Shown here: piece by piece, positions 11,969 through 55,526 of the stretch
How the letters are laid out: the number at the start of each line of letters is the position of its first letter
Numbering within the stretch: the stretch's first letter is position 1
Assembly: GCA_041497675.1 (NCBI GenBank)
Contig: JBGQGY010000002.1
Span: 14,731-78,730 of the forward strand
Origin: a bacterium
GTDB lineage: Bacteria > Sysuimicrobiota > Sysuimicrobiia > Sysuimicrobiales > Humicultoraceae
Reading direction: 5' to 3'
DNA: 64,000 nt
The notes under the pieces: model-generated
Told to the model about the DNA's origin: nothing
What the model saw: only the letters and a program-made list of their open reading frames with translations
Database searches by the model: none
Position numbers and translations under genes: made by a program

Positions 11969-12033
11969 ACGGCTCGACGATGATCGGCAGTCCTCCGGCG
12001 ATTGCCGACTCGTTCGGAAGAGCGTTTGTTTGT

Positions 12034-12051: not shown

Positions 12052-12093
12052 TGGTAGATATGTTAGCTTCAGTGCCTGCGGTGAGGATTCCTC

Positions 12094-12747: not shown

Positions 12748-12768
12748 ACAGATTCTCCAACTCTCATT

Positions 12769-13947: not shown

Positions 13948-14153
13948 GACCCTCCGGCAATATCTATTATGCCCATCGTGAGGACTTCTAGACCCGACCG
14001 GACTACGCCGCTCGGAGGAGTGACTAGGCGGCTCGAAACGTGCCTGCATCCCCCCGTGGCGGTGCACCACCGGCCGGGGTGCCGTTGGACCAGCATAGGG
14101 CCTCGGCGCGTCGGGGGAAAGGCCCGGGGTGGTCTCCCGGCCGGGCGGCGCCC

Positions 14154-17397: not shown

Positions 17398-19053
17398 TTA
17401 CTTCGCCAGCGCGTACAAGTGGTAGTGCTCGTCCGCGTATTCGGTCTTCCAACCGGCGCAGCCCTCGAGCCCGCCGCCTCTCAGGATGACGTGGGTGACC
17501 CCGTACCCGGAGGATAGCTCCTTGAGGAGGCGGCAACGCTCTTCCGGGGAGGGCTGGACGGGTGTCGGAGCCGGGGCCTGCCGTGGCGCGCGGCCGGTCC
17601 GACGGCCTTCGCGCTGGTAGCGGAAGTCATCCTCCGCGTTCGCCTCGACCTCACCGTAGAACGCCTGCGCCAGGTGCAACCGCTTGTACCATTCCATCAC
17701 CCCGACGTCATCGTAAGGGATGACCGAATGTTCCATAAAAGCCGGGGCACCAGTATAGAGCCGAAACGTGCGCCAGTTCGGCGGAATGAGATAAGTTTGA
17801 CCAGGCACTCCCGTGCGTTTGACGTGCCGCATGACGGTGGGTATCCGCCTCGCGTCCAGGGCAAACCGCGCTCTGGTCTCAAGCACTCCGGCGATGCAGA
17901 ACAATACCAGGACGCCCACGCTCGCCACAACGAGGGCCTGCCCCGCAGCCGCGCCGGTTTCGAGCCGGCTGACCACGAGGGACACGGCGTATCCGAGGAT
18001 GATCAGGGTCGCGAGCGGCACGGTGAAGGCCGACATCCGCCAGGGAAGGAGTGCGGCGAGCGTGTTGTTGTATCGGACGGCCTGCGCCGCCGTCAGCACC
18101 GCCGTGGTGAGAAACGACCCCAGGAGAATCCAGAAAAAATCGGTCTTCCGAACAAGATAGAGGGCAGCCACGATCAGCGCGACCTTGATGTAGACCGCCC
18201 CACCCAGCCATAGCGACGGCACCGAGGGCGGATAGTACGCGACCCGCCAGAGGATATTCTGCGCTTCCTTCCAGAGCGCGGGATTCGTCGGGCCGAACGC
18301 CAGATAGGAATACGCCAGCACCGGCAGGATGAGCACGAACGCCAGGAGACCCAACCCGATTGCCGGCCGTACTCCCTTCCCGCGCCGGATCATGATGGCC
18401 ATGTAGGTGAGTGTGAGCACTGCCGAGCAGAGGACGTAACTGGGTTGGAATATCGATGCGATCGTAGACGTCGTGATGGCCCATACCGGCCGGCCGCGCA
18501 TGAACAGGTAGATCGAGAGCAACAGAAACGCCCCAAAGGTGCCCGGGTTCAGCATGTCCCCCAGGATGCGTTTCTCGCCGATGCCCTCCAGCAACAGGAT
18601 CCGGCCGATGTTGAAGTGGTGCGGTGACGAGGTGAGCGGCAGGCGAAGGCCCATGCGGACGAGGTAGCCAAATACCGGCGAGTGGAGCGCGACCATCAGG
18701 GTCACAAAGATGAGAAACGTCGCGCGCGTGCGGTGGATGGGAACGAGCTGCGAGATGATACCAATCATAGAGAACGCGTAGACGCCAGCCAGCACGAGGA
18801 AGTACAGATACACGAGGCGCAGACTCAGATATCGCTGCGTAAATTCGACCAGCCCGGAGAACACGGGCCACGGATCCGGCGTCTGAGCGAACCAGTCGGC
18901 GCGCAGCAGGCCATAACCCGCCTTGGCCAACCCCTGGAAGAAGTATTGATTCTGCGTGTGATAAAAGAGCGCGTACTGCGCATAGGCGACGGCGAACGCC
19001 GCCGCCGCAAAGAGCACATACGACCGGGGCACCGGCCGTGACACGTCGACCAT
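17398..19053 (-). CDS. Large polytopic membrane protein (about 12 TM helices plus a C-terminal soluble domain), family not recognised, possibly GT-C-like
   Basis: A 551-aa hydrophobic N-terminus is followed by a C-terminal domain of about 130 aa (IPYDDVGVMEWYKR...THVILRGG). It is a paralog of 26980..28620 and shares NQYF, LRxDW and DPxPxFS motifs with it. Confidence 0.6.
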   Translation of the reverse strand: MVDVSRPVPRSYVLFAAAAFAVAYAQYALFYHTQNQYFFQGLAKAGYGLLRADWFAQTPDPWPVFSGLVEFTQRYLSLRLVYLYFLVLAGVYAFSMIGIISQLVPIHRTRATFLIFVTLMVALHSPVFGYLVRMGLRLPLTSSPHHFNIGRILLLEGIGEKRILGDMLNPGTFGAFLLLSIYLFMRGRPVWAITTSTIASIFQPSYVLCSAVLTLTYMAIMIRRGKGVRPAIGLGLLAFVLILPVLAYSYLAFGPTNPALWKEAQNILWRVAYYPPSVPSLWLGGAVYIKVALIVAALYLVRKTDFFWILLGSFLTTAVLTAAQAVRYNNTLAALLPWRMSAFTVPLATLIILGYAVSLVVSRLETGAAAGQALVVASVGVLVLFCIAGVLETRARFALDARRIPTVMRHVKRTGVPGQTYLIPPNWRTFRLYTGAPAFMEHSVIPYDDVGVMEWYKRLHLAQAFYGEVEANAEDDFRYQREGRRTGRAPRQAPAPTPVQPSPEERCRLLKELSSGYGVTHVILRGGGLEGCAGWKTEYADEHYHLYALAK

Positions 19054-19073: not shown

Positions 19074-20387
19074 TTAGAACGTGATCTCTTGCAGTTCGCG
19101 GAAGCGGCCCGAACGTAATGGTTGCCCGTCACTTGCCTGCGCGAGCTCGCTGAAGTTGTCGCTCCTGGTGGTCACGACGGACACCACGTACATCAGTTCC
19201 TGCTCTATCTGACTCTGGAACTGCACCGCCAGCCTGGCCAAGTCGCTGGCATCGCCGACACCCTGATAGCGTGGCAGCGCGAGCGAACGGGACACCTCCA
19301 GGCGACCCAAGAAGTGACTGGCATATATCGCCTGGTTTCGCGCCGTCTGGCGGGGATTCTTGAACGACCGGTCGATGGCCCACGTGGCCATGAATGCCGA
19401 GTACATGCCCAGTACGACTCCAATCGAGAATATCGGGTCGACAAATGCGGCCGCGTCGCCCGTCAGAAAGAACCCAGGGCCCGAGAGCTGCGCGGGACGA
19501 TAGGAGTAATCGCGGATCATACGCGTGCTGCCCTCACAGAAGGTCGCGTGCTCGAGCAGCCGGTCAAGATACTGTGTCTCATAGCACTTACGCAAGAAGT
19601 ATTCCTCGAGCCCCTTGTCTGTGGCCTTGATACGCTTCAGGTGGTCGATCGGCACCACCAGACCGACACTCGTGCTCTCGCGCAGAGGGATATGCCACGA
19701 CCACCCCCACTCACCCAATTCCCCGACGGATGAGATAAATGTTGTGGGTGGGATCTGGCGGACGTGTTCGAACCCGTGCGCGCGACCGCCCGCGGCGACG
19801 TACTTCGATCCGGTGAAATACCCCCACACGCTCATGAAGCGAAACCCCTCGTCGATCACACGCATGCCGAGCTGTTTGGCGATGACGGCCCCCTGTCCGC
19901 TGGCATCGATCACGAATCGGCAGGCGATCCTGTCCGTTGCCTCGTCATCGGCCGCGCGGTACGCGACCGTGACGCGCTCGCCCCCGTTGAGGTCGACTTT
20001 GGTCGCCGACACGTCCTCAAACACCTGCGCGCCCTGTTCGCGGCTGTGCTCCAGCAGGATCTGGTCGAACCGATCACGCTCGACGTGCAGGGCCGGTCGC
20101 GTGTAGCCGAAGTCGGCGAAAGCGAGCTGTCGAATCACCCCGTGCCAAGCGTGCGTCCCACCGGCTTTCTTGATGAAGTCTTCTTCCTCAATTTTCTTCG
20201 TCGCGCCGAGCATGTCCGTATACTTCCAAAAGTGCGGGATGAGGCTCTCGCCGACGACATAGCGAGGGTGCCGGCGCTTCTCCAGCAGCACAACATCGTA
20301 CCCCTTTTGCCGCAGCAGCGTTGCCGCTGTGCTGCCGGCCGGCCCGCCGCCAATAACAACAACGTCGCACTCTCGCGGTATGCGCAT
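19074..20387 (-). CDS. Flavin-dependent halogenase (tryptophan-halogenase family)
   Basis: It carries an FAD-binding GxGxxG (VVVIGGGPAGSTAA), the family-defining WxWxIP motif (GWSWHIP) and a GDAA...FVDPIFSIG motif. Confidence 0.6.
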   Translation of the reverse strand: MRIPRECDVVVIGGGPAGSTAATLLRQKGYDVVLLEKRRHPRYVVGESLIPHFWKYTDMLGATKKIEEEDFIKKAGGTHAWHGVIRQLAFADFGYTRPALHVERDRFDQILLEHSREQGAQVFEDVSATKVDLNGGERVTVAYRAADDEATDRIACRFVIDASGQGAVIAKQLGMRVIDEGFRFMSVWGYFTGSKYVAAGGRAHGFEHVRQIPPTTFISSVGELGEWGWSWHIPLRESTSVGLVVPIDHLKRIKATDKGLEEYFLRKCYETQYLDRLLEHATFCEGSTRMIRDYSYRPAQLSGPGFFLTGDAAAFVDPIFSIGVVLGMYSAFMATWAIDRSFKNPRQTARNQAIYASHFLGRLEVSRSLALPRYQGVGDASDLARLAVQFQSQIEQELMYVVSVVTTRSDNFSELAQASDGQPLRSGRFRELQEITF

Positions 20388-20432: not shown

Positions 20433-21386
20433 TTAGTCTTTGATTGAGGACTGAACCCACTTGATGGTGAGGTCGAGGACGTTGTCTTGCACGTCGAGGC
20501 TGGTGAGATTGTTCGGCATGCCCTCGATGGGCGCCAGGGTAATCCGGTCACCGGCCTGATCGAACAGCTCGCGATATGTTCCGGTCTGGAGCTGCACGAA
20601 ATCCCGATACATCGATGACCCGCGGCCGTAGACGAACATCACCGGCACGCCGCGGGACACCAAAGCACGGAGCGAGTCAACCACCGACTTCGAGAGCCAC
20701 TCGGTTTCCGCGCCACCGTTTCTCCGACGCCTGAACAGTTGGCCCGCCGCGAGGTGGAGTTTTCGCATCCACCGTTGGCGGCGGCGCGGGTCGCGCATCC
20801 CCCGCAGGATCCGCGTCCAGGCGCCGTGCCGCGCGGCATTCCGCACGTCGTCCAACGCCCACCGGTTCACGGCCTGCTCGGTCTGGCCGCGCTCGTGGAG
20901 AGGCGGTGAGATCAACGCCACGCCGAGAAGGTTGCGGGCGTGCTGAACGCCCAGCAGCGCGGTCCGAGCCCCGAAGCACCGGCCGATCAGGACGACCTTG
21001 TCGAGCCCGCGCCGGTGAAGTTCCTCGATTGCCCCATGCAGGTCCTGACCGAATGGCTCTTCGTTTGTCGCGAGCGTGATCACGGCGTGCTTGAGCGCGC
21101 TCCCACTCGAGGGCCCGCTGCTTTCACCGAACCCGCGATAGTCAAAACGTAGCACGTGGAATCCCAGCGCGGCGAGGCGCCGGGCCAGACGTGGTTGAAC
21201 GCGGTTTCGGTCCGACGTCGCGTTGAGCAGCACAACACCGATCCCACGAGGGGGCCCCAGGGGCTCCGTCAAGATCCCAAAGGCCCGGTCATCTGCCACC
21301 GGAAACCGCACGGGGATCTCCGTGCGGCTGATCGCTTCGGCCTCAATCAACTGATCGTGCGGTGTTGCCGTGCTCGCGTTCGCCAT
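20433..21386 (-). CDS. Alpha/beta-fold hydrolase
   Basis: The product has an HVLRFDYRGFGESSGP region and a nucleophile-elbow context, and is similar in size and type to 26052..26948. Confidence 0.7.
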   Translation of the reverse strand: MANASTATPHDQLIEAEAISRTEIPVRFPVADDRAFGILTEPLGPPRGIGVVLLNATSDRNRVQPRLARRLAALGFHVLRFDYRGFGESSGPSSGSALKHAVITLATNEEPFGQDLHGAIEELHRRGLDKVVLIGRCFGARTALLGVQHARNLLGVALISPPLHERGQTEQAVNRWALDDVRNAARHGAWTRILRGMRDPRRRQRWMRKLHLAAGQLFRRRRNGGAETEWLSKSVVDSLRALVSRGVPVMFVYGRGSSMYRDFVQLQTGTYRELFDQAGDRITLAPIEGMPNNLTSLDVQDNVLDLTIKWVQSSIKD

Positions 21387-21413: not shown

Positions 21414-22937
21414 TTACGCCTGCTCCGCCGCACGCCGCCTCGGACTTCGCCGGCCGGGGACCACTTCGCGGATTGCGCGGACCAACCCGCGAATAACCTG
21501 CGGGTCGATCAGCCACAGCGCGGCGGCGTAGGTCACGGCTCCGGCCGCAATCAGGATGATCAACACGACGACTTCGGGCAAGTGGGCATGGCCCTCAAGC
21601 ACCCACATCAGCGTGGCCACAACGGCGGCCATGATCGTGCATCCGATGACCGTCGCGTTCAGGGCGGCCCACACATCCCTAACGGTCATGCCGATCGCCT
21701 GGGACACGTAGCGATAGACGATCGGCATCAACGCGATGGTGGCGACCAGATAGCCTGCGGCGACGCCGATGATTCCCCAATGGAGCCCGACGACGAACGC
21801 CGGCAGGTAGAGGCCGACGGAAAACATGGACAGACGCAGGCGCAGACCCGGCTTGCCGGTGGCCTCCAGCCCTGTCGGCCAGAACGTCGTCAGCAGGCGC
21901 AGGAACCCGGCGATGGTCAGCACCCGGATGACCGGCACAGCCGGCAGCCACTTCGCGCTAAACACCACACTCACGGCCAGCGGGGCGACGAGGGCCAGAC
22001 CGACCAGCATCGGCAACGTCACCATCGTCACATACTGGGTGGCGCGCATGAAAGCGTTTTTGAAACGCACCGCGTCGTCCTGTAGCCTGGACAGGGCTGG
22101 GAAGAACACCCGGTTGAGCAACCCGATGTCGTTGAGCGGCGCCAGAAAGACGGAATAGCCAAACGTGTAGTAGCCCAACGCCGTCGCCCCCAGATACCGG
22201 CCGACGAGCAAGTTGTCCATTTGCCGCACGAAGTAGTCGAACAGGGACGCCCCCTGCAGCCGGCCGCCAAAGGACCAGAGTTCAAGAAACTTCGAACGGA
22301 CAAACACGAACCGCGGCCTCCAGCCGGTAGCGCGCCAGAGCAGAAGGGTCCCGGAGGCGTACATCGTGAGCTCCTGACCGACGAAGCTCCACACGCCCAT
22401 ACCGCGGTACGCCATCGAGATCCCGACCACACCGCCGACCAGCGTCGCCGCCATCGAGCGAAAGGCCAGCAACCGGTAGTCCATGCGCCGGGACACGATG
22501 GCCATCTGCATGGATGCGCCCGAGATGATCAAGAAACTCAGGGACAGCACCGACAGCACGCGACCGACCAGCGGATCGCCAAGCCAGCGCCCGACGAGGA
22601 TGCCTGCGAGGGCGCCGAACGCCGCAAGGATGACGCCGAGCGTCACGCTTGCCCAGAAGCCTGTGGACAGATACTCGTCGTCGATCTCCCGGCGCTGAAT
22701 GATTGCTGAACCCATCCCCATGCTCCCGATGATGCGGAGGAACGTGAGGAAGACCGCGGCCAGCGCAAAGACGCCGTAGTCCTTTGGGAGCAACAGGCGC
22801 GCCAGGACGACCGCAAAGATCTGGTCAACGACCCGGCGCCCGAATTGATCACCGCCGAACCACAGGATCCCACGCATTGTCGCCGCGCGAAGCCGATGCA
22901 ACGGCACGCCGGCGGCGGTGGTTATCTGTTCAGACAT
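21414..22937 (-). CDS. Wzx-type oligosaccharide flippase (MOP/polysaccharide biosynthesis protein family)
   Basis: A 507-aa protein with about 14 TM helices and a conserved N-terminus (VVDQIFAVVLARLLLPKDYGVFALA...GSAIIQR). Confidence 0.75.
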   Translation of the reverse strand: MSEQITTAAGVPLHRLRAATMRGILWFGGDQFGRRVVDQIFAVVLARLLLPKDYGVFALAAVFLTFLRIIGSMGMGSAIIQRREIDDEYLSTGFWASVTLGVILAAFGALAGILVGRWLGDPLVGRVLSVLSLSFLIISGASMQMAIVSRRMDYRLLAFRSMAATLVGGVVGISMAYRGMGVWSFVGQELTMYASGTLLLWRATGWRPRFVFVRSKFLELWSFGGRLQGASLFDYFVRQMDNLLVGRYLGATALGYYTFGYSVFLAPLNDIGLLNRVFFPALSRLQDDAVRFKNAFMRATQYVTMVTLPMLVGLALVAPLAVSVVFSAKWLPAVPVIRVLTIAGFLRLLTTFWPTGLEATGKPGLRLRLSMFSVGLYLPAFVVGLHWGIIGVAAGYLVATIALMPIVYRYVSQAIGMTVRDVWAALNATVIGCTIMAAVVATLMWVLEGHAHLPEVVVLIILIAAGAVTYAAALWLIDPQVIRGLVRAIREVVPGRRSPRRRAAEQA

Positions 22938-22968: not shown

Positions 22969-23235
22969 TCAGGCGCCCGCGCGGCCGCGGTCGAGCATCT
23001 TCTTGTCGACCAGGCTCGCAATCGACGCAATCGTGCCAAAATTCGCCGGAACGAGTTCCTCGTCGGCTAGCTCGATCCCAAATTGCTGTTCCACGAAGGA
23101 CACGAGCATCAGCAGACCCATGGAGTCGACCACGTGATTCTCGATCAACCCAAATTCGGGCGTCAACGCGCCCTTTGTCTCATCCCAGTGCAGTTCACTC
23201 AAGAGAAAGTTTCTCACCGTCACGGCTGTTGTCAC
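22969..23235 (-). CDS. Acyl carrier protein
   Basis: An 88-aa four-helix protein with a phosphopantetheine-attachment motif (VVDSMGLLMLVSFVEQQFGIEL). An AAGGAGGA Shine-Dalgarno lies 10 nt upstream of the GTG start. Confidence 0.75.
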   Translation of the reverse strand: MTTAVTVRNFLLSELHWDETKGALTPEFGLIENHVVDSMGLLMLVSFVEQQFGIELADEELVPANFGTIASIASLVDKKMLDRGRAGA

Positions 23236-23281: not shown

Positions 23282-23298
23282 CCGCACATTATGTGCGG
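23282..23298. repeat. Perfect palindrome CCGCACAT-TA-TGTGCGG that spans the stop codon of the AMP-ligase gene, immediately upstream of the ACP gene
   Basis: Read directly from the sequence. The TAA stop (23289-23291) sits in the loop of an 8-bp-arm hairpin. Confidence 0.4.
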
Positions 23299-24886
23299 TT
23301 GGGGACCGTTGACGCCGGCGCCGCCAGAGCGGTCCGGTCGGTCTTGCCCGTCGACGTCTTGGGTAGGGCCGGCACAAACTCAAAGATCTCCGGCAGCATG
23401 TATCGGGGCAGCAGCCCGGCGCAGAACTTCGTCAGGTCGCCGTCGTCCACGGCCGGGTTGTTCGTCACGACGAAGGCCTTGATCCGACTACCCACCACAT
23501 CGTCCGGGATGGCGATGACGGCGCATTCGGCCACGGCCGGGTGCGCGGAGAGCGCCGACTCGATGTCGCCCAACTCGATGCGGTACCCCCGACTCTTGAT
23601 CTGGTGATCCCGGCGCCCCAGAAAGATGGTGTGGCCGTCCGCACGTCGCCGGACCAGGTCGCCCGTCCGATAGACTCGGCCTTTCATCGGTCCTGACGGA
23701 TTCTGCAGGAACGCCCGGGTCGTGCGCTCCGTATCCCCCCAATAGCCCTGCGCCACCGTGTCGCCCCGCACCTGGAGTTCACCGACCTCCCCGTCGGCCA
23801 TCGGCTGTCCCGACTCGCCGACCACAAACACGTCGACGCCGCCGATGGGCACACCGATAGGAATAGACTCGGTCTGGTCTGCCGGCAAGAGCGGTACCGG
23901 GTAATACGTGCAGACGTTGGTCTCCGTCGGCCCATAGAGGTTGGTGAACACCGCGTGCGGTACCAACCCCATCAGCGCCCGCAGGTGTTTGGTCGGGAAC
24001 ACCTCACCCGCAAAGATCAGGTGCCGGAGCGTGCGCAACCGCCCAACGGTCAGGTTGCCGCGCAGCACCAGAAGCGTCAGCACGGAGGGTACCGAGTACC
24101 ACATCGTGATGCCGCGGTCCTCGATGAACCTGGCCAGCTGCACCGGAAAGACCGAGATCTCGGGAGGGACGATGGCCAGGGCCGCTCCGGCCATCGCCGC
24201 CGCGAAGATATCGAGGATCGTCAGATCGAAGTGCAGCGGCGCATGATTCGAGAACACGTCCTCGGGCGTCCCGCCAAAGTAATCATGACACCACCCAACA
24301 AACGCCAGCGCGTTTCGGTGCGACAGCATCACGCCCTTCGGTTGTCCCGTCGATCCCGACGTGTACAGGATATAGGCCAGGTCGCCGCTGCTGCCCTCGA
24401 CGGTGTGCGCGGCGGTCGGCGCGGCTTCCAGCGCATCGGTCCCCAGGCACCGTACGCCTTCCGGTGTAGCGCCTTCGTCACCTCGGGCGTCCAGGACGAC
24501 CAGGTGCTGGAGCGGGGCACCCGCGCCTACGAGCCCGCTCCACTCTCGAGATTTCTCCCGATGCGTCACCAGGCAGCGGACTCCACAGTCGCGGGTAATA
24601 TACCCCAGACGCTGGGCCGGGGCGGCCGGGTCCAGCGGTACATAGGCGGCACCGGCCTTGAGGATGCCGTAGATGCCCACGATGGCCTCGTTACATTTGT
24701 TCAAGAAGAGGCCGACGCGATCGCCCGGGCGGATTCCGGCTTCGCGCAGCGCAAACGCCAGTTGATCGGCGCGACGGTCGAGCTGCGCGTACGTCATGAC
24801 CCCGCGTGTATCCCGCAGCGCAATGCGACCCGGGAATCGGTTCGCGGCCTCCGCAACGAGGTGGGGCAACAGCACCGCGTTCACAG
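23289..24886 (-). CDS. AMP-dependent synthetase/ligase (adenylate-forming acyl or aminoacyl ligase)
   Basis: It has the adenylation core motifs (YTSGSTGQPKGV, YGPTE) and a TGD...K region. The start is trimmed to a GTG that overlaps the acyl-CoA dehydrogenase stop as GTGA; the track ORF begins 54 codons upstream. Confidence 0.85.
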
Positions 24887-26026
24887 CCCGAGGCCTCCGG
24901 CGATGATGTTCCGCTGGATCTCCGACGTCCCCGAGTACAGCCGGCTTCCAACGGCGTCGCGAAGTTCGCGTTCCAATTCGTACTCGGCCGTGTATCCGTA
25001 TCCGCCGTGAATCTGCACCGCGTCGAGGCTGGATTCCACAAAACATTCGCTCAAATAGAGCTTAACCATCGCCGATTCCATCGCCGTGCGTTTGCCCTGA
25101 GTCTTCAACCAGCCTACCTTGTACAGCAAGAGCCGCGCGGTCTCGAGCCGGACCTTCATGTCGGCGATCCGGTGCGCCACGGCCTGAAACTTGCCGATAG
25201 GCTGACCAAACTGTGTCCGCTCCTTCGCGTGCGCGACGCACCGTTCGAGCTGCCGCTGCATCGTCCCTACCGCCGTCGCGAGTATGCAGGTACGCTCCCA
25301 GTCCATCGACGTGTTGAAGATCGTCGAGCCGGCGCCTGGAGCACCCAGCAGGTTCTCATCGGGAACCTCGCAACCGTCCAGGGCCAGCTCGCCCATCGGG
25401 GATGTTCGGAGTCCCATCTTGTGTATCTGACCGGCTACCGACAGACCCGGTGTCTGCCGCTCCACAATGAAGGCCGAGAGCCCGGCAAATCCCATCGCTG
25501 GATCAGTCCGGGCAAATACGAGAAAGACATCGGCGACGGGAGCATTCGTGATGAACGTCTTGCTGCCGGCGATCACATACCCACCGCTCGTCTTACGGGC
25601 CGTGGCACGAAGGCTGAATGCGTCCGAGCCGGACATCGGTTCGGTCATGGCCTGGACGCCGATCATGGTCCCGTCGCACAGCCGGGGTAAGTAACGCTCC
25701 TTTTGGTCTTCTCGCCCGAACTTCCACAAAGGGAGCTGAAAACTCCACATCTGCGCGTTGAGGGAGAATAACAGCCCGTTGTCTCTGCACGCGTATCCAA
25801 GCGCTTCCAGCGCGATCAGCGTCGTCAACGGGTCCAGACCGCCACCGCCATAGGCCTCAGGAAACGGCAACCCTTGAATCCCAAATGTGCCGCATTTCTC
25901 CCACAGCGCGCGCGAAAAATCGCCGTGCAGATCACGTGTCAACAGGTCGTCACGCAGTTCGCGCTCGGCGAACCGTGTCACGGCCTGCTGAAGCTGCTCT
26001 TGGTCTTTGGTCAGCGAGAAGTCCAT
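24881..26026 (-). CDS. Acyl-CoA dehydrogenase
   Basis: A 381-aa protein with canonical acyl-CoA dehydrogenase N-terminal, middle and C-terminal domains (MTEPMSGSD..., YSGTSEIQRNIIA). Confidence 0.9.
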   Translation of the reverse strand: MDFSLTKDQEQLQQAVTRFAERELRDDLLTRDLHGDFSRALWEKCGTFGIQGLPFPEAYGGGGLDPLTTLIALEALGYACRDNGLLFSLNAQMWSFQLPLWKFGREDQKERYLPRLCDGTMIGVQAMTEPMSGSDAFSLRATARKTSGGYVIAGSKTFITNAPVADVFLVFARTDPAMGFAGLSAFIVERQTPGLSVAGQIHKMGLRTSPMGELALDGCEVPDENLLGAPGAGSTIFNTSMDWERTCILATAVGTMQRQLERCVAHAKERTQFGQPIGKFQAVAHRIADMKVRLETARLLLYKVGWLKTQGKRTAMESAMVKLYLSECFVESSLDAVQIHGGYGYTAEYELERELRDAVGSRLYSGTSEIQRNIIAGGLGL

Positions 26027-26051: not shown

Positions 26052-26948
26052 TCAAACGGCGGGAATCGTGCGCGTGAGCCACGCAGCCGACGCCTCCACG
26101 ATCACTCTCGGGGAGGGCATGGGACTATCGACAAAGGCCCACGCCCCTTCGCCGAGGATCACCGTGGCTTCGACGGAACAGCCGGCCGCAACCAACGCAT
26201 CTTGCAGCCTCGCGAACTCGGGCTTGACGGCCTGTTGGGGGCTGATCTGCACCAACAGGACCGGCCGGGCGCCGGCGGCAGCCAATTGCGTCAGGCTCCG
26301 GCCTTCCGCGCTGTTGTACAACGCGCGGTGAATTGGATATCCCAACGTATCCAGCACGCCCACGGCAGCCACGCGCTCCACGGCCTGCGTCACGGTCAAA
26401 GCGCTCGCACCCCCGGCGAGGGCGCTGATCTGGCTCGCGCGGAAGATCTCTCGAAAATATCCCCGACCGTCCATGACGGGTTCCCACAGAATTAGCGGAG
26501 CGCCGGGATGTTGCAGCGCCGTGAGCGCGGCAACCAGACCGCCCCACCGTCCGCCGCAAAACGCCAACGCGGAAACTCCAGTGCGGGTCTTGAGATACTC
26601 GACCGCCGCGGCGGTGTCCTCAAGCATCGTATCGAGGGTCGTGTCGTCAAACGCGCCACTGCTGTGCCCGGTCCCGCGGTAGTGGAAGCGAATCGTCGCG
26701 AGTCCGGCCTTCGCGAAGGCCCGCGCGGTCAGGACATGGGTACCGTACATCTTGTGCTCTTCGGCGAGCATTCCCTGGCACATCACCACACCGGCGCGCG
26801 GCGCCGCTTCACCCCGGTGAACCACGCAAAAGAGCTCCCCGTGCTGCGTGGGGAGAAACATCGCATCCTCGTACACCTGCTCCGCCGGATCGACATACCG
26901 GGCGACGCGCGGCGGAACGGTCATGCCCACACTTTCAACCCTTGCCAT
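26052..26948 (-). CDS. Alpha/beta-fold hydrolase
   Basis: A 298-aa protein with an RFHYRGTGHSSG region, followed by a nucleophile elbow near AFCGGRWGG. Confidence 0.65.
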   Translation of the reverse strand: MARVESVGMTVPPRVARYVDPAEQVYEDAMFLPTQHGELFCVVHRGEAAPRAGVVMCQGMLAEEHKMYGTHVLTARAFAKAGLATIRFHYRGTGHSSGAFDDTTLDTMLEDTAAAVEYLKTRTGVSALAFCGGRWGGLVAALTALQHPGAPLILWEPVMDGRGYFREIFRASQISALAGGASALTVTQAVERVAAVGVLDTLGYPIHRALYNSAEGRSLTQLAAAGARPVLLVQISPQQAVKPEFARLQDALVAAGCSVEATVILGEGAWAFVDSPMPSPRVIVEASAAWLTRTIPAV

Positions 26949-26979: not shown

Positions 26980-28620
26980 TCAGCGTGCCGTGACGCGATA
27001 GACGCCGTATTCGGCATCCTCATATGCGGGGTGCAGGCGACCGCAAGTCCCATCGGTTTGCGCCCGTCGAAGCACCACGTGAGTCACGGCATAGCGGCGC
27101 ACCACATCCGAAAGCGTCTGGCAAACCAGCGCCGGATCGTTGAGCCGAGACAGCCCCCAGGCCGTTTCAGACCGAGAAACCCACTCGACCAGTTCCACGT
27201 CCTTGTACGGAATAGATTTGCGATCGACGAAGACCGGGGCGCCCGTGTAGAGCCGGAACCGCTCCAGCACAGGGGGGATCAGGTACAGATCGCCAAGAGA
27301 CTTGGTCCTTCGCACGAAGTCCATCACGGGCACGCTGGCATCCTGTCTGTCCTCGTCCGCGAGTCGTTGCGTGTACTGCCAGCCGCCGACCATGAGCAAC
27401 ACGAGGGCCACGGCGCATCCCCATGTCAGGAGACGTTCTCGTTGGGCAGTGTCTTTCACAAACCGACTGTCGAACCAGGACACAAGAGCGGCCGCCAGCA
27501 CACTTGTCGCTACCGGAACCACATACACGGACAACCGCCACGGAAACAGCAATGCCAGGCCGGGGCTTCCCGATACCACCTGGACCACGGTGAGCACGAC
27601 ACCGACCACCGTGGAGATCAGCAGCACGGCGAAGAGCCGTGGCGATCGCCGGGCGACGACAAGTCCGGCACACACCAAGACTATTTGCACGTACGCAGGC
27701 GTGCCGAGCCACCGGTGGACAAGTGCATGGTGTTGCAACCGCACATTCATCAGAACGTCCTGCGCGGCCGCCCATGCCGATGGGGAGGTCGGACGGAACG
27801 CGACCACCACGTACGCGGCCATTGGCAGCAGCAGCAGCGCTCCGAGAATCCCGATACCGACGGCCTGCCGAGTATCTCGAGTCTCCTTGATGATGACGAG
27901 TACGTACGACAGGATCAGCACGCCGGCTGCCAGCAGGTACGCGGGATGCAAGATGGCGGCCGCGGCTCCGTGGACGACGGCGACCTTCCGACGGTCTTGT
28001 GCGAACGCGTGGATGGACGCGATGAGGAACACTCCGGCCATACTCGGCTGCAGAATATCTCCCATCAGGAACTGCCCGGCAACACCATTCGTGAATACCG
28101 CCCGCAGGTCGATGCCGAGGGTCGGCAGCGACAGCGCGGCCAGCAGCGCCGAGTGTATCCCCAACAACAGCATCACGTACGCCGCCAGCCTGGTCCGTGA
28201 GGCGTCCACCGGCACAGTGCGCAAAGTCAGACCGATGAGCCCGCTAAAGTAGACGCCGGCCAGAACCATGAAGTAGACGAAAAACAACCCCTCGTGAAGA
28301 TAGCGCGTAGTCAACTCGACCAGGAAGCTGAATATGGGCGTCGGGTCAACCGTCGTCGCCAGCCAGTCGTGGCGCAGGAGACCCACGCCGGCCCGGGCAA
28401 ATCCATGAAGGAAGTATTGATTTTGATTCGATGTGTACAGCGGCGCCTGTCCGTAGATCACACCCCCGACAATCGCCAGGATGGCGAACGTGCCCAGGCG
28501 CAGGAGCATGACGCGAACGGCGGCCACGCTCCCGGATGGCCATGCCGGAGCGGGTTCGACCTTCGGCCCCGCCTCGGTGGCGGTTGCCCGCCCGGCGTCC
28601 AGGCTGAAGCCCTTCATGTG
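26980..28620 (-). CDS. Large polytopic membrane protein, paralog of 17398..19053
   Basis: It has the same architecture and shared motifs (NQNQYFLHGFARAG, LRHDWLA, IPYKDVELVEWVSR...THVVLRRAQ). The start is trimmed to M at about 28620 (an alternative is about 28509), because the track ORF overlaps the upstream methyltransferase by more than 100 nt. Confidence 0.6.
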   Translation of the reverse strand, partial: HMKGFSLDAGRATATEAGPKVEPAPAWPSGSVAAVRVMLLRLGTFAILAIVGGVIYGQAPLYTSNQNQYFLHGFARAGVGLLRHDWLATTVDPTPIFSFLVELTTRYLHEGLFFVYFMVLAGVYFSGLIGLTLRTVPVDASRTRLAAYVMLLLGIHSALLAALSLPTLGIDLRAVFTNGVAGQFLMGDILQPSMAGVFLIASIHAFAQDRRKVAVVHGAAAAILHPAYLLAAGVLILSYVLVIIKETRDTRQAVGIGILGALLLLPMAAYVVVAFRPTSPSAWAAAQDVLMNVRLQHHALVHRWLGTPAYVQIVLVCAGLVVARRSPRLFAVLLISTVVGVVLTVVQVVSGSPGLALLFPWRLSVYVVPVATSVLAAALVSWFDSRFVKDTAQRERLLTWGCAVALVLLMVGGWQYTQRLADEDRQDASVPVMDFVRRTKSLGDLYLIPPVLERFRLYTGAPVFVDRKSIPYKDVELVEWVSRSETAWGLSRLNDPALVCQTLSDVVRRYAVTHVVLRRAQTDGTCGRLHPAYEDAEYGVYRVTAR

Positions 28621-29390
28621 CCCGCCTTGTGGGCCACGCACAGCAGCGACAGCCCCAGCGGAAGATCCATCACCCGGATCAAACTTCGCTCCAGTAGCAG
28701 CACGCGATACGCCAACCAGTTCCACGGGTTGGCGAGGTCGAGTGGATCAGCCTGCGGTCTTGCGTCACGACGCACCGCCGATATCAAGCGGACGGCCACC
28801 GCGACGGGAAGCAGCAGGGCGTTGAAGTAGGTGACCCGCACGACCTGAAACCCGCACGCCTCAAGGAGCCGCCGGATCTCGCCACGCGAGTAGCGCCGGA
28901 CATGTCCCAGGGCCCTGTCGTGTTCGCTGTACAACCACGACAGCGCGGGGACGGTGATGAGCAACGTGCCGCCAGGTTTCAGCACGCGAAAGCACTCGCG
29001 AAGCACGCGTCCGTCGTCCTCCACGTGCTCGAGGACATCGGTGATCCCCGCCAGATCCAGCGCGTCCCCTCGTAGCGGCATGCCCTCAAGCGTCCCGATA
29101 GCCAGGTTTCGATATCCCCGCGTGCGGCACACGGCGACTGCCAATGGCGAGATGTCAATGCCCACGACCTCACCATGCGCACGCAGGACGTCGGCCATCC
29201 CGCCGGCGCCGCATCCAAGATCACCGACGGTGCCGTTCGCGGCGCCGTTCAATTGACTCTCTAAGACCGCCCGGACGAGATCCCGGCGGCCGCGGACCCA
29301 CCAAGAGGTCTGGTCGGACTGGGCCAGGCGGGCGATCTCCTGTTCGTTGGGCCCAAACGCCTCGGGGTGATGGTCGACGCCGGTCGACAC
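28614..29390 (-). CDS. Class I SAM-dependent methyltransferase
   Basis: It has a glycine-rich SAM motif (VGDLGCGAGGMA) and the motif LKPGGTLLITVP. Confidence 0.75.
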   Translation of the reverse strand: MSTGVDHHPEAFGPNEQEIARLAQSDQTSWWVRGRRDLVRAVLESQLNGAANGTVGDLGCGAGGMADVLRAHGEVVGIDISPLAVAVCRTRGYRNLAIGTLEGMPLRGDALDLAGITDVLEHVEDDGRVLRECFRVLKPGGTLLITVPALSWLYSEHDRALGHVRRYSRGEIRRLLEACGFQVVRVTYFNALLLPVAVAVRLISAVRRDARPQADPLDLANPWNWLAYRVLLLERSLIRVMDLPLGLSLLCVAHKAGT

Positions 29391-30266: not shown

Positions 30267-31933
30267 TCATTCCTGCCCGCAGCTCCACGAGACGCTGAGG
30301 ACCTCGTAGGCGATGAACTCCGGGAATCTCGCCAGCTCCCGCACTGGGAGCGATGGCTCGCCCCGGAGCAGCTTCTCGATCGTGCGACCGTACCGCCGGC
30401 CCATGGCTTGAGGATCCAGCCCGCCGTCTTCGGCGCGCAGGATCAGGTACGGGTGCTCCCACCCCAGCGTGGTCAGGGTACTCGCGATGCGCCGGCAATC
30501 GCGGTCAAACCGATCGCCACCACGGTACTCGAGGAAAGACGCAAACGACACCACGGGCCGGTCGAGATAAAACGTATAGTCGAAGCCCCCGTTGCCGACA
30601 ATCGGCGCACCTGGAGGTGTATTGGCCGCCACCCACTTGACCCACACAGGCGGATCATCAGGGTGCAACCGCGGGCCACCCGCGGCCATCGCCCGGGGGA
30701 GCACCACGCCCGCCACCACGGCCACACAGACAACGGCGACGACCCATGGCAGCGCGCGCCGCGCCGGGGCCGCGACGATGCTCACAAACACGGCGACCGC
30801 GCCGCTGACGCTGACGAGCGCCAACGGATACCCCGGCATCAGCATCCGCGTGCTCAATGACATGAAGCCCATCACCAGATGCGCGACGAGCATCCCGGCC
30901 CAAAACCCGGCCCAAAGCATGATCAGGAAGCGACGCTCCGCCGTCCCGATCGAGCTCGCAAGCGCGGCCCTGACCCCTGCGCGGACTCGGTCGCTGCGAA
31001 GCAGACCGTACAGCAGCACGCCCCCCCCCGCGAGCACCAGAAGGATCACCGCCCGCCGATCGACGTTGGCCATCTCAGGCAGGACCAAGACCCGCGACAA
31101 CAGCTCGAGGGCGTCGGCGGCGATAGTCTTCACGGCGTACGCCGCATGGTACACCAATCCGCGTTCGTCGGGCGGACGTCCGGCTCCAATCAACGAACCG
31201 GTAACGACGACGTTGCGTATTAAGAACGCCACTGGGGGGATAGCGGCGCAGACAGACCACACTGCTGTGACCGCCAGCCGCTCTCTGAGTGCGCGTCCCT
31301 GAAGATTCACGATCAGGCCCACGGCGCCAATCGGAATCAGCGCCAGCGCCGCGTATCGGGTGAGCGAGGCCGCTCCCATCGCCAGTCCTCCGAGAGCGGC
31401 GATAAGCAATACCCGCGCCGTCGTGGGTTGCGGACGAAGCAGCCTCACGGTAATGACCGCGCACAGCACCACGAACAACACGAACAGGTTCTCGGACAGC
31501 GCCATGCCGGCGGTACGGGCCACCGGCGGCCACACCGCGAGGAGTAGCGCAGTGATGGTTCCGACACTGCGATCGAATACGGCCGAGCCCAGCACCCAGA
31601 CCAGCGCCACGGTGAGGCCAAATGCCGCTATGGACACCAGTTTTGTCGCCTCGGGAGCAGGCACGCCAAGTTTTGTCACCGCAGCCGCGGCCCCCGGGTA
31701 GAGAGGAGGCCAAAACGATATGGGTGACGGCATCTTCGCCGGGTAGTAGGGAGCGAGCAGGCGCGTGGACATGCCTTCGCCGGCCGCGATGCGCCGCGTG
31801 AAGTCCACGTACCCCATCTCCATAGGATCCCGGAACGGTGGCGTGTGGGCCGTCTCGAGTAGCGCGACGACCATCGCCAGTAGTGCCAAGATCACGGCGG
31901 GTAGGGCGCCGACACGCGGCGCAACACGGTTCA
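30267..31933 (-). CDS. GT-C glycosyltransferase (ArnT/PMT-like, GT39/GT83) with a C-terminal periplasmic domain
   Basis: It is polytopic, with a conserved first loop (YYPAKMPSPISFWPPLYP) and a C-terminal soluble domain. The start is trimmed to M at about 31933 (MNRVAPRVGALPAVIL). Confidence 0.7.
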
Positions 31934-31959
31934 TGGCATGCTCTCGCGACACTCGGTGG

Positions 31960-32070
31960 CTTAGAACAGTGTGTAGATGAACGGCGCCAATCCCGTGGCC
32001 GCCGCGAGCACGAACAACAGCGCGAACACGACCAGAACCAGGATGAGAGGCGTCGCCCACCAGCGCTTCA
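31960..32070 (-). CDS. Possible 36-aa single-TM micro-protein (MKRWWATPLILVLVVFALLFVLAAATGLAPFIYTLF) between the two GT-C genes
   Basis: The ORF was found by manual translation of the 234-bp spacer. Its third-position G/C content matches genome bias (about 30 of 35 codons), but no clear Shine-Dalgarno precedes it. It is below the track's size cutoff. Confidence 0.25.
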
Positions 32071-32167
32071 TGTGCCACAGAGACCTGAAAAGTTCACCCA
32101 CGATCTGCAGTGACGCTCCAATCGCTCTCAACACGTTCACAGCGCATTCCTCCTCTGTTCCTTCAGC

Positions 32168-33853
32168 TCAGCGAGCCTCACAGGTCCACTGCGGTTGCTG
32201 GATCAGGAATGCTGCAAACTCCGCATGGCGGGCCAGTGGCACGACCGGCAGGGTGGTCGGACGGCCGCGCAGCAGCCGATCAATCGTCGGCCCATACCGC
32301 CGACCCATCAGGTCGATATCGAACTCGCCATCTTCCGCGTGAAGCACGAGATAGGCCTTGTTCCAGCCAAGCATGACCAGGTGACGGGAGATCAACGCGC
32401 AGTCGCGGTCGAATCGGTCACCGGCGCGGTAGACCGCGAACACCTGGAAGGAATAGGCGGGCCGATCAAGATAGAAACTGAAATCGGTCGAACGATTCCC
32501 AATGATCGGACTTCCCGCCGGCGTATTGGCGGCCACCCACTGTACCCACACGGGCGCCGGATCCGGCGCCAGCCGCGGCCCCCCGGCCGCAACGGCCCTC
32601 GGCAGCACAACGCCTATCGCCGAAATCGCGAACACGATTGACACCGCCCAGACCACAACCCGCCGGGCCAACCCCAGGCGCTCAAGGAATGCCATGACGA
32701 TCGCGATGACGCAGATCAACACCAGCGGATAGCCGGGCATCAACATCCGAGTATTCAACGGTTCGAACGCCGTCATGCTACGAATCGCCACCATCGCGAC
32801 CCAGTAGCCGGCTCCAATCACCACGACCAGGCGGCCACTCGGCGAGCTCTTCAGGACGGTACCCGCCTCGACCAGCCCGCGACGTACGCGAGGACTGCGC
32901 ACGAGCCCATAGAGCAACAACCCGACCGCGGCCAGCACAAACAGGATCATCACACGGCTGTCCAGTCCCAACGCTTCAGGGATGACCGTGAGACGCCACA
33001 ACAGCTTCAACCCATCCGTCACCAGGGTCTTCGCTGCGAAGACAACGTGATAGACGACGCCCTGGTCGTCCGGGGGCCGACCGCGCCCCATGAATGCACC
33101 TGTCACGAGCCGATTGCGAACGAGCAACAACACCGGCGGCACGCCGGCGCACACCGACCAGATCGTCACGAGTTTGAGGCGTTGCCGCCAGGGCTGCACT
33201 TCAAGGTTCAAGAGCAAGAACACGCCAGCGATCGCCATCACGGCCAGACCCGGATAGCGGGTCAGGGCCGCGCCCGCCATCGCCAGGCCCCCAGTCGCGG
33301 CAAGGCGGGACGCCCCTGGTGTCGCCGCGTCGCGGAGGAGCCGAGCACTGAACAACACCGACAAGGTCAAGAACATGATAAAGAGATTCTCCGACAACGC
33401 CATGGCGGCGATGCCGGTGACAACGGGCCATGCCATCAGCAGTAGCGCCGCAGTCGTGCCCACCCCTTCACCGAAGACCTCCCTACCGATGACCCACACC
33501 ACTCCCACTGAGACCCCAAACGCCGCCACAGACACGATCCGCGAGGCGATCGCCGCGTCGACTCCCACTGCGAGGAACGCGGCAATCACGGCCGGATACA
33601 GCGGTGGCCAGAGGGCTATTGGCGACGGGAACTTCGCCACATGCGAGGGGAAGTAGATGGTCGATACAATGCCTTCGCCCCGCGCCAGGTGGCGCGCCAT
33701 ATCCACGTAGATCATCCCGGTGGCATCGAATCCCGGGGATGTTGCCGTCTGGGCCAAAGCCGCCGCGATGCCCAAGGCGATGAAACACACAACCCAAACG
33801 GTGCGCCGTGATTCCGCGATCACCGGCCTGCGCCACGCACCATTCGCCACCAT
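32168..33853 (-). CDS. GT-C glycosyltransferase, tandem paralog of 30267..31933
   Basis: It has the same motif (YFPSHVAKFPSPIALWPPLYP) and the same C-terminal domain (WNKAYLVLHAEDGEFD). Confidence 0.7.
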   Translation of the reverse strand: MVANGAWRRPVIAESRRTVWVVCFIALGIAAALAQTATSPGFDATGMIYVDMARHLARGEGIVSTIYFPSHVAKFPSPIALWPPLYPAVIAAFLAVGVDAAIASRIVSVAAFGVSVGVVWVIGREVFGEGVGTTAALLLMAWPVVTGIAAMALSENLFIMFLTLSVLFSARLLRDAATPGASRLAATGGLAMAGAALTRYPGLAVMAIAGVFLLLNLEVQPWRQRLKLVTIWSVCAGVPPVLLLVRNRLVTGAFMGRGRPPDDQGVVYHVVFAAKTLVTDGLKLLWRLTVIPEALGLDSRVMILFVLAAVGLLLYGLVRSPRVRRGLVEAGTVLKSSPSGRLVVVIGAGYWVAMVAIRSMTAFEPLNTRMLMPGYPLVLICVIAIVMAFLERLGLARRVVVWAVSIVFAISAIGVVLPRAVAAGGPRLAPDPAPVWVQWVAANTPAGSPIIGNRSTDFSFYLDRPAYSFQVFAVYRAGDRFDRDCALISRHLVMLGWNKAYLVLHAEDGEFDIDLMGRRYGPTIDRLLRGRPTTLPVVPLARHAEFAAFLIQQPQWTCEAR

Positions 33854-35032: not shown

Positions 35033-35044
35033 ACCGAAACTCGG

Positions 35045-36229: not shown

Positions 36230-36250
36230 ATGCCCTTGTTGAAGTTACGG

Positions 36251-39912: not shown

Positions 39913-39952
39913 CTGTACCGCCTGTCTGAAATCAGACGTCAGCGACACAACG

Positions 39953-42504: not shown

Positions 42505-42544
42505 CTGTGCGTCCTCACAGCCTCTTCAGCATTGAGCGCAACAC

Positions 42545-43734: not shown

Positions 43735-43740
43735 GACCGG

Positions 43741-45663: not shown

Positions 45664-45717
45664 CGGCCCTCACCTCTCTGAGTATGTGCCCGGATCCACA
45701 TGTCCATGGCTGTCTTG

Positions 45718-46731: not shown

Positions 46732-46733
46732 GC

Positions 46734-47915: not shown

Positions 47916-47925
47916 CGTGATGTGT

Positions 47926-50222: not shown

Positions 50223-50239
50223 CGTGGTCCTCGAACTCC

Positions 50240-52113: not shown

Positions 52114-52123
52114 GTGAGTGTCT

Positions 52124-55522: not shown

Positions 55523-55526
55523 CCGC

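Follow-up and report, generated by a model that had tools for sequence, protein, structure and literature searches.

We describe a predicted flavin-dependent halogenase gene, here called HAL (positions 19074-20387, minus strand), in a 64,000-nt stretch of DNA from an uncultivated bacterium. This stretch is referred to as the window, and all coordinates relate to it. Together with its neighbours, HAL appears to make up a thiotemplated halopyrrole cassette which, with an estimated probability of roughly 0.55, is wired into a module for surface-glycan decoration. The host may well decorate a surface glycan with a halogenated pyrrole acyl group. The evidence comes from HAL and its partner genes, from an unusual pair of alpha/beta-fold proteins, and from four alternative versions of the module that occupy a single chromosomal site.

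HAL carries the residues expected of a flavin-dependent halogenase

An earlier, sequence-only reading of this DNA had called the open reading frame (ORF) at 19074-20387 a flavin-dependent halogenase, naming a GxGxxG motif, a WxWxIP motif and a GDAAAFVDPIFSIG block. All three were located, together with the catalytic lysine and glutamate that the same reading had proposed to check. The positions of these features are as follows.

19074-20387, minus strand: HAL, predicted flavin-dependent halogenase, 437 aa, ATG start (Pfam, NCBIfam and PDB matches)
20331..20351, minus strand: GxGxxG FAD-binding motif, GGGPAGS, residues 13-19 (translation)
20166..20168, minus strand: codon of the catalytic lysine K74 (aligned to CndH K76 and the CmlS Lys)
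19686..19703, minus strand: WxWxIP motif, W229-P234 (translation; GWSWHIP is residues 228-234)
19419..19460, minus strand: GDAAAFVDPIFSIG block, second FAD-contact motif, residues 310-323 (translation)

Conservation was assessed in an alignment of 33 HAL family members from many phyla. Invariant throughout were G13, G14, G15 and G18 of the FAD-binding motif, W229, W231, I233 and P234 of the WxWxIP motif, and G310, D311, F315, D317, P318 and G323 of the GDAAAFVDPIFSIG block, as were K74 and E47. K74 occupies the position of CndH K76 and of the CmlS lysine, in agreement with the catalytic lysines of known halogenases (PrnA K79, CndH K76, CmlS K71), and E47, part of a GESL motif, pairs with the CmlS glutamate in the alignment to PDB matches.

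Profile and structure matches were in line with these residues and far stronger than chance would give. HAL scored 101.5 bits against the Pfam Trp_halogenase model PF04820 (curated cut-off, 21 bits; E = 6.6e-29), and its top NCBIfam model was that of the CmlS halogenase, at 219 bits over profile positions 3-341 of 570 only. Membership of the CmlS equivalog NF033113 itself was not supported, as the cut-off is 900 bits and the C-terminal domain was not covered. When HAL was compared with solved structures, 9 of the best 10 matches were halogenases, including CmlS (E = 1.2e-48), CndH (3.3e-43), PltA (4.8e-36), 8zop, RadH, ChlB4, Mpy16 and Bmp2. Halogenase structures spanned 1e-48 to 2e-27, against 3.5e-10 for the geranylgeranyl reductase (GGR) 3oz2 and 6e-06 or weaker for hydroxylases. 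A GGR or monooxygenase identity was therefore rejected, the halogenase structures scoring about 40 orders of magnitude better and the lysine being present. Both findings that the sequence-only reading had named as telling against a halogenase, loss of the lysine and grouping with GGR-type monooxygenases, fail because K74 is present and the scores favour halogenases over GGR. Every sequence criterion places HAL in the flavin-dependent halogenase family.

Alternatively, the ORF could encode a QhpG- or LodB-like flavin mono-oxygenase or an inactive relic, which would hydroxylate or merely bind a carrier-bound aromatic group. The NCBIfam models of QhpG (123 bits) and LodB (105 bits) also match, the CmlS score lies under the equivalog cut-off, and neither a flavin reductase nor a halide-related gene was seen in the locus. 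In contrast, flavin-dependent halogenases often rely on flavin reductases of housekeeping metabolism, the top structural relatives of HAL are proven halogenases, and K74 and the WxWxIP motif are invariant in a family whose members are 57-93% identical between phyla, which argues for strong purifying selection. We consider a mono-oxygenase or relic highly improbable.

The genes beside HAL form a putative proline-to-pyrrole cassette

As neighbours of HAL, the sequence-only reading had listed an alpha/beta-fold protein, a Wzx flippase, a carrier protein, an adenylating enzyme and an enzyme of the acyl-CoA dehydrogenase (ACAD) fold. All of these are present, all on the minus strand; the list had missed a second alpha/beta-fold protein, two DUF6798 proteins and the proline specificity of the ligase and the dehydrogenase. 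Three of the neighbours make up the cassette considered first.

22969..23235, minus strand: type II carrier protein, 88 aa, phosphopantetheine Ser38 in VVDSMGLL (PDB matches and NCBIfam acyl carrier protein, or ACP, models)
23289..24875, minus strand: stand-alone L-proline adenylation enzyme, or A enzyme (TIGR01733, PltF match, specificity code)
24881..26026, minus strand: prolyl-carrier-protein dehydrogenase, ACAD fold, 381 aa, catalytic Glu244 (PigA and RedW models, AnaB and Bmp3 structures)

The A enzyme scored 409 bits on TIGR01733, and its top stand-alone adenylation match in the PDB was PltF (6o6e; 333 bits), an L-proline:carrier-protein ligase. Its specificity code of ten residues, taken by motif anchoring, is DLLYIALVCK. 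The published consensus for stand-alone Pro A domains, L(L/F)YLALVC (PMC3874040), is equalled at seven of eight positions, the eighth being a conservative L to I change, and the codes of cassette homologues are mostly DLFYLALVCK or DLLYLALVCK. The longest ORF of the A enzyme reaches an ATG at 25046, which makes it overlap the dehydrogenase ORF by 166 nt. A GTG in the same frame at 24875, six bases past the dehydrogenase stop codon, gives an enzyme of 528 aa and is probably the true start, since homologues of 529-532 aa and the start of the PltF alignment agree with it.

The dehydrogenase scored 466 bits on the NCBIfam PigA model (cut-off, 500 bits) and 420 bits on the RedW model (cut-off, 650 bits). 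Its PDB matches were AnaB (4irn; 431 bits), Bmp3 (6cxt_B; 330 bits) and 5zw0, a dehydrogenase acting on a prolyl peptidyl carrier protein (PCP; 327 bits). Glu244, at a site that differs from the catalytic-Glu position of medium-chain acyl-CoA dehydrogenase, was retained in 27 of 29 cassette homologues. The sequence of the enzyme does not separate two-electron from four-electron oxidation. The carrier protein matched the PCP 2my5, the Bmp1 carrier domain (6cxt_A) and PigG (5jdx). A generic reading of these genes, as a fatty-acyl ligase with a beta-oxidation ACAD, was ruled out by the Pro code and by the PigA, RedW and AnaB matches.

These findings suggest that the ligase, ACP and dehydrogenase constitute a classic thiotemplated pyrrole cassette. 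The thiotemplated route, in which proline is converted through prolyl-S-carrier protein (prolyl-S-CP) and pyrrolyl-2-carboxyl-S-CP to halopyrrolyl-S-CP, is familiar from pyoluteorin (PltF/L/E/A) and from the bmp pathway. The context of a PltA- or Bmp2-type halogenase, comprising a Pro-specific A enzyme, a type II carrier protein and a prolyl-CP dehydrogenase, is encoded in the window. Because the neighbours form such a cassette, the substrate of HAL is most likely pyrrolyl-2-carboxyl-S-CP, as for PltA and Bmp2. The earlier proposal that an ACP-tethered group is halogenated holds as far as the tether is concerned, and its generic acyl or aryl group can be narrowed, from the code and the dehydrogenase, to a pyrrolyl-2-carboxyl group derived from L-proline.

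HAL belongs to a conserved clade linked to the proline cassette

The best 120 matches to HAL were 57-93% identical and about 435 aa long, with annotated members from Planktothrix, Nostoc, Geminocystis, Xenococcus, Thiomargarita, Rokubacteria, KSB1 and others. Scanning one genome for each species gave 80 HAL loci (loci from the genome and metagenome scans carry L-numbers below), in which the closest relatives came from bacterial metagenome-assembled genomes (MAGs; 80% and 72% identity) and from an Armatimonadota MAG (67%). HAL is predicted to form a clade of its own, large and highly conserved, that takes in cyanobacteria, betaproteobacteria, Chloroflexota and others; no characterised member of this clade was found.

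Linkage was counted in 35 species-representative loci in which HAL was at least 50% identical and at least 4 kb of flank was available on each side. A Pro-type A enzyme lay near HAL in 32/35 loci, a carrier protein in 31/35 and the dehydrogenase in 26/35. With partners present in 26-32 of the 35 loci, the HAL clade appears functionally tied to the proline cassette. Planktothrix contigs and a 6-Mb genome showed the same arrangement.

The genes that follow the cassette vary by lineage. Cyanobacterial cassettes adjoin proteins of unknown function, DUF3179 proteins, sulfotransferases and glycosyltransferases. In 19 mostly betaproteobacterial (Casimicrobiaceae) loci, an LpxL/HtrB-family acyltransferase gene (PF03279) stands directly after HAL, at about 11.3-12.4 kb in each (L032-L049, L063, L067 and L075-L078). 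Ten loci of the Casimicrobiaceae group, nine of them within the 19, have an MFS-like transporter gene adjoining on the opposite strand, as judged by eye. The LpxL-family gene beside betaproteobacterial HAL hints at halopyrrolyl transfer to a lipid or glycolipid in these bacteria. More distant HAL relatives (43-46% identical), which come from Methylococcales and related MAGs, lie beside beta-ketoacyl synthases (L055, L057, L058, L060, L061, L064, L065, L068, L069 and L071); these ketosynthase-linked loci may be aryl-polyene or xanthomonadin-like halogenation clusters.

Two unlike alpha/beta-fold proteins may form an acyl-transfer unit

In the window, the cassette is interleaved with genes for a flippase and for two alpha/beta-fold proteins, ABH1 and ABH2.

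20433..21386, minus strand: ABH1, alpha/beta-fold protein with a Cys nucleophile, G135-R-C137-F-G139, Cys codon at 20976-20978 (Abhydrolase Pfam model, hydr1_PEP)
21414..22937, minus strand: Wzx/MOP flippase of the module (Polysacc_synt_3, 261 bits; MOP flippase model, 230 bits)
26052..26948, minus strand: ABH2, alpha/beta-fold protein with Arg at the nucleophile position, GGRWGG (hydr2_PEP, alignment with esterase 9pic)

ABH1 belongs to a rare family, with 57 matches in 5.8 billion proteins, and its C137 was invariant in 38 sequences. In ABH2, Arg replaces the nucleophilic Ser of esterases and Trp stands where the catalytic His is expected, and these replacements are conserved in the family alignment. 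In a wider survey of the nucleophile elbow, GxCxG was found in nearly all of 89 ABH1-type homologues, a count biased by the inclusion of the Cys motif in one of two search patterns, and GxRxG in nearly all of 76 ABH2-type homologues, for which there was no selection for the Arg. Both proteins scored below the cut-offs of TIGR03100 and TIGR03101, the models of exosortase A (XrtA)-associated hydrolases 1 and 2 (ABH1, 56 bits on hydr1_PEP, cut-off 168; ABH2, 112 bits on hydr2_PEP, cut-off 203). An AlphaFold2 (AF2) model of ABH1 has a generic alpha/beta-hydrolase fold.

A metagenome scan with the ABH1 alignment retrieved 80 loci, and adjacency was counted in those of at least 6 kb that held ABH1. 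ABH2 adjoined ABH1 in about 49 of 51, the two exceptions having ABH1 at a contig edge, and most of the ABH1-holding loci also carried an adenylating enzyme. This layout, two unlike alpha/beta-fold genes side by side with an adenylating ligase nearby, and in an exopolysaccharide (EPS) locus wherever the context was annotated, is that of the XrtA-associated hydrolase pair. All annotated contexts of the pair were polysaccharide loci (the window, its alleles, L090, L094 and L118). L090 is a glycan locus that holds the pair, a carrier protein of 59% identity and a Wzx in the absence of a halogenase. In five further loci (L094, L101, L103, L110 and L118), ABH2 and ABH1 are accompanied by a prolyl dehydrogenase, a Pro-type A enzyme and a carrier protein, and no close halogenase is present; L094 and L118 are polysaccharide loci with a UDP-sugar dehydrogenase, a Wzt ABC transporter, a tyrosine-kinase-like ATPase, an asparagine synthase and a family 4 glycosyltransferase (GT4). 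Decoration with a non-halogenated proline-derived acyl group may be more widespread than the halogenated kind. The residues at the two elbows suggest that the pair is a Cys-dependent acyl-transfer unit with a non-catalytic partner, and not two hydrolases.

The alternative role for the pair is that of thioesterases in a cassette that makes a free, diffusible halopyrrole or halopyrrole-2-carboxylic acid, as in the formation of tetrabromopyrrole by Bmp1-4 or in ChmF-type release, with the glycan genes being mere neighbours. In many phyla, the self-contained HAL, carrier protein, A enzyme and dehydrogenase cassette occurs without glycan genes nearby, as in L003, and Bmp1 and Bmp3 are among the matches of the carrier protein and the dehydrogenase, respectively. 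Release of a pyrrole acid also has a precedent in ChmF, an alpha/beta hydrolase that simply hydrolyses the acid off its carrier protein (PMC10849742). Against this stand the absence of the Ser and His positions from ABH2, the presence of Cys and not Ser in ABH1, and the polysaccharide context of the pair, which extends to loci that have no halogenase.

Four alleles of the module share one chromosomal site

Four alleles of the module, those of the window, L172, L089 and L171, were found next to the same set of genes, which comprises two unknown genes, a methyltransferase, a histidine kinase, two LuxR-type regulators, MerR, HSP20 and DnaK. Gene orders are given below, where A is the adenylation enzyme, CP the carrier protein, FAAL a fatty acyl-AMP ligase, and DUF6798a and DUF6798b the two DUF6798 proteins.

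Window allele: DUF6798b, ABH2, ACAD, A(Pro), CP, Wzx, ABH1, HAL, DUF6798a
L172 allele: ABH2, ABH1, ACAD, A, CP, Wzx, HAL (93% identical)
L089 allele: DUF6798, FAAL-like ligase, chorismate-lyase-like (PF01947), PaaK/FlxY-like ligase, CP, HAL (73%), ABH2, ABH1, Wzx
L171 allele: chorismate lyase, PaaK-like ligase, CP, ABH2, ABH1, Wzx, DUF6798a; no halogenase

The flanks of L089 and the window were 96.8% identical in DNA over 8.4 kb, with 100% protein identity for the regulators and 99.7% for DnaK, whereas inside the module the two were 70-82% identical or non-homologous. L172 lacks the 11-kb block of GT-C, GT2, GDSL and carbamoyltransferase genes. More distant MAGs (L006-L008) had the same gene set in shuffled order. 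The carrier protein, ABH2, ABH1 and Wzx form the constant core of the module, since all four alleles keep them. Around this core, the supply of the aromatic acid is predicted to be interchangeable, running either from proline to pyrrole or from chorismate to hydroxybenzoate; by analogy with Rv2949c/FadD22, the chorismate supply of L089 and L171 would yield 4-hydroxybenzoate. The halogenase, from its pattern of presence, would be an optional tailoring gene placed beside the carrier-protein gene.

Cassette swapping together with a co-varying, dedicated flippase in a polysaccharide locus is expected of surface-antigen decoration and not of a diffusible metabolite. A free halopyrrole is likewise at odds with the position of Wzx inside the cassette, its co-variation in all four alleles, and allele swapping at a fixed glycan-locus site, which is typical of surface-antigen diversification. 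We therefore regard release of a free halopyrrole as unlikely.

The cassette lies in a Wzx-dependent glycan locus

Every gene between about 38 kb and 17.4 kb is on the minus strand, separated from the next by 20-53 nt. Beyond the cassette and the alpha/beta-fold pair, the following features were assigned.

17398..19053, minus strand: DUF6798 membrane protein a, predicted GT-C-fold glycosyltransferase (PF20604; AF2 fold match)
26980..28725, minus strand: DUF6798 membrane protein b (PF20604, 48.8 bits; 74% identical to the L089 orthologue from residue 65)
28614-29390, minus strand: class I methyltransferase (weak NCBIfam match to the DVU_1556 methyltransferase)
29392-30189, minus strand: GT2 resembling polyprenyl-phosphate sugar synthases (weak NCBIfam matches to PgfS, ArnC, PpgS and AglJ)
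30267..33853, minus strand: two PMT_2 (GT-C) membrane glycosyltransferases (PF13231)
33857..38023, minus strand: two GDSL-family proteins and a NodU-type carbamoyltransferase, glycan tailoring (Pfam; NodU model)
38338..55561, minus strand: core Wzx-dependent glycan locus (Pfam, NCBIfam)

The AF2 model of DUF6798a had a pLDDT of 87, and its top 14 PDB fold matches were all GT-C enzymes, among them DPY19, STT3/PglB, AftA, EmbB and ArnT (probability 0.96-1.0; TM about 0.3-0.47; ArnT, in 14th place, E = 0.077). Residues D53, W54 and D60, near the N-terminus of DUF6798 proteins, were invariant. From the model, both DUF6798 proteins that bracket the cassette are predicted to be GT-C-fold glycosyltransferases. 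Homologues of DUF6798b align from its residue 65 onwards, so its true start probably lies near 28530.

The core locus encodes a FemAB-like GNAT, a plain GNAT, a PglF/WbpM-like dehydratase, a deacetylase, two GT4 enzymes, a PseC/LegC-like aminotransferase, a small phosphoglycosyl transferase and a second Wzx. This second flippase (48663-50714; 683 aa) has an N-terminal extension of about 180 aa. With it, the locus encodes two flippases, one among the core genes and one in the acyl module, the latter lying between the carrier protein and ABH1. From its gene content, the region 17.4-55.6 kb is predicted to be a Wzx-dependent polysaccharide locus.

Two plus-strand ORFs, at 14967-16157 (396 aa) and 16154-17383 (409 aa), had no Pfam or NCBIfam match. 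Both are 96-99% conserved in L089, and genes occupy the same positions in L089, L171, L172 and L006; this pair, spanning 14967-17383, marks the fixed boundary of the variable module. A heat-shock cluster lies at 4280-14070, with ClpB, DnaJ and DnaK, and with HSP20 and a MerR-type regulator assigned by synteny with L089. After it, directly beside the glycan locus, come two LuxR-type response regulators, paralogues that share about 74% identity, and a HisKA_3 kinase. On the far side, at 55973-62398, two family III CoA-transferases, a thiolase-like protein and an extradiol dioxygenase apparently form an aromatic or organic-acid catabolic cluster unrelated to the glycan locus.

A proposed pathway from proline to a decorated glycan

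Taken together, the genes of the module are consistent with the following pathway. The A enzyme, whose specificity is predicted from its code, would activate L-proline and load it onto Ser38 of the carrier protein. By homology to PigA, RedW, Bmp3 and AnaB, the ACAD-fold enzyme would then use Glu244 to oxidise prolyl-S-CP to pyrrolyl-2-carboxyl-S-CP. HAL, supplied with FADH2, O2 and halide, would generate hypohalous acid, which K74 would steer to the carrier-bound pyrrole, as in PltA and Bmp2. ABH1 is proposed to accept the acyl group on Cys137 by transthioesterification and, with the non-catalytic ABH2, to pass it to a sugar or oligosaccharide linked to polyprenyl phosphate at the cytoplasmic face, where a hydroxyl or an amine would receive it. 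The dedicated Wzx would flip the decorated lipid-linked intermediate, and in this allele the GT-C enzymes (DUF6798 and PMT_2) would move the flipped unit to its final periplasmic acceptor.

For transfer to a lipid-linked glycan, a further claim of the sequence-only reading, the support is circumstantial and comprises the interleaving of the genes, the co-variation of Wzx and the swapping of alleles at one site. That the product ends up on a glycan is a tentative proposal, to which we would give not quite even odds. The halogenated acyl group could instead go to a non-glycan acceptor, such as lipid A, an aminolipid, a protein or peptidoglycan, with Wzx exporting an unrelated lipid-linked unit. 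Such an acceptor would fit the betaproteobacterial cassettes that are followed by an LpxL-family acyltransferase and an MFS transporter, and the carrier protein resembles an ornithine-lipid ACP model. The LpxL family, however, acylates sugar hydroxyls of glycolipids too, the module has no lipid-synthesis genes, and in this lineage it is constantly accompanied by Wzx and, in three of the four alleles, by GT-C enzymes. We judge a non-glycan acceptor distinctly unlikely.

Several observations weigh against the pathway from proline to a glycan-bound halopyrrole, in addition to the L003-type cassettes that stand apart from glycan genes and the hydrolysis carried out by ChmF. HAL scores higher against CmlS and CndH than against PltA, Mpy16 and Bmp2, the characterised halogenases of pyrrolyl-S-CP (169 bits for CmlS, against 128, 121 and 99 bits, respectively, with 8zop, CndH and RadH also above PltA), so that PltA, Mpy16, Bmp2, Clz5 or HrmQ are not its nearest characterised relatives by this measure. 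Assignment of the substrate by clade is loose, as the 73%-identical HAL of L089 has a hydroxybenzoate-type supply. AnaB, the best match of the dehydrogenase, halts at pyrroline and does not proceed to pyrrole. Finally, ABH1 has no obvious canonical His, and a fold search with its model gave no specific structural relative.

Relation to known systems

The four parts of the window cassette are the same as those of PltF/PltL/PltE/PltA and Bmp4/Bmp1/Bmp3/Bmp2, including a halogenase with the catalytic lysine. Unlike in those systems, the halogenase of the window falls in its own clade, nearer by score to CmlS and CndH, and no polyketide synthase (PKS), nonribosomal peptide synthetase or thioesterase domain takes up the product; the Cys/Arg pair and Wzx are found in its place, in a glycan locus. 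Closer to the proposed transfer are the CloN and CouN systems of clorobiocin and coumermycin, in which a carrier-bound pyrrolyl-2-carboxyl group is moved to the 3'-OH of noviose with the aid of an alpha/beta-hydrolase-fold acyltransferase (CloN7/CouN7). The likeness, drawn by description only, lies in the passage of a proline-derived pyrrolyl group from a carrier protein to a sugar hydroxyl; the acceptor there is a small-molecule antibiotic, and the pyrrole is not halogenated.

The XrtA-associated module (TIGR03098, TIGR03100 and TIGR03101) has the same EPS-locus architecture, with an adenylating enzyme, a carrier protein and two unlike alpha/beta-fold proteins. The A enzyme of the window also matches the ligase_PEP_1 model, below its cut-off, and distant ABH pairs, presumed to include XrtA-type ones, share the Cys/Arg elbows. 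The window differs from the XrtA module in scoring far below the equivalog cut-offs and in having a halogenase and a prolyl dehydrogenase as well. The window ORFs that were scanned included no exosortase, and no paper on the function of the XrtA ligase/ACP/two-hydrolase module was found.

Teichoic-acid D-alanylation by DltA and DltC is also a carrier-protein-dependent decoration of a surface polymer, and the A enzyme scored about 280 bits on DltA models. In the Dlt system, the MBOAT protein DltB and DltD carry out transfer across the membrane, whereas the window module has no MBOAT and relies, as proposed, on the alpha/beta-fold pair and Wzx; its acyl group would also differ, being an oxidised, halogenated heteroaromatic. 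The supply genes of L089 and L171 resemble those of Rv2949c/FadD22 in phenolic glycolipid synthesis and the FlxY ligases of flexirubin and aryl-polyene pathways, sharing a chorismate pyruvate-lyase-like protein (PF01947), a FAAL-like ligase, a PaaK/FlxY-like ligase and a carrier protein. Unlike Rv2949c/FadD22, they have no following PKS and are tied to the ABH pair and Wzx; the window itself lacks these genes.

To our knowledge, thiotemplated halopyrroles have so far been described solely from small-molecule antibiotics and signals, for which they serve as building blocks. The sequence-only reading had held that halogenated surface glycoconjugates are essentially undescribed, and a limited, non-exhaustive literature search, which found no report of them, is consistent with this. 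In the same search, no paper was found that placed pyrrole-2-carboxyl with O-antigen or bacillosamine, that reported the specificity-code strings of the A enzyme, or that described PDB entry 8ZOP. In a Sphingomonas EPS paper, a Trp halogenase appears only as an unrelated transposon match. Within this partial coverage of the literature, the chemistry of the cassette is known, and the HAL clade, the embedding of the cassette in a hypervariable glycan locus and the Cys/Arg transfer unit were not found described.

Implications for surface-glycan diversity

A broader reading, which we hold with more reserve than glycan attachment in the window itself, is that this lineage and other carriers of the Cys/Arg pair covalently attach chlorinated or brominated aromatic acyl groups, derived from a carrier protein, to a surface polysaccharide or glycoconjugate and exchange them by serotype-like swapping, and that the XrtA-type pair is a Cys-dependent acyl-carrier-protein:glycan acyltransferase. 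The acyl groups would then be halopyrrole-2-carboxyl in the window allele and halo-hydroxybenzoyl in a sister allele.

If the proposal is correct, halogenated aromatic acyl groups would join the repertoire of bacterial glycan decoration, and the product proposed here would be, as far as we have found, the first halogenated bacterial surface glycan. The XrtA-type hydrolase pair would have its first assigned function, the widespread exosortase-associated ligase/ACP/two-hydrolase module would gain a concrete role open to testing, and a large, conserved halogenase clade with no known characterised member would be defined. Strains of this lineage would diversify a surface structure through exchange of the cassettes that supply the aryl acid and through gain or loss of the halogenase.

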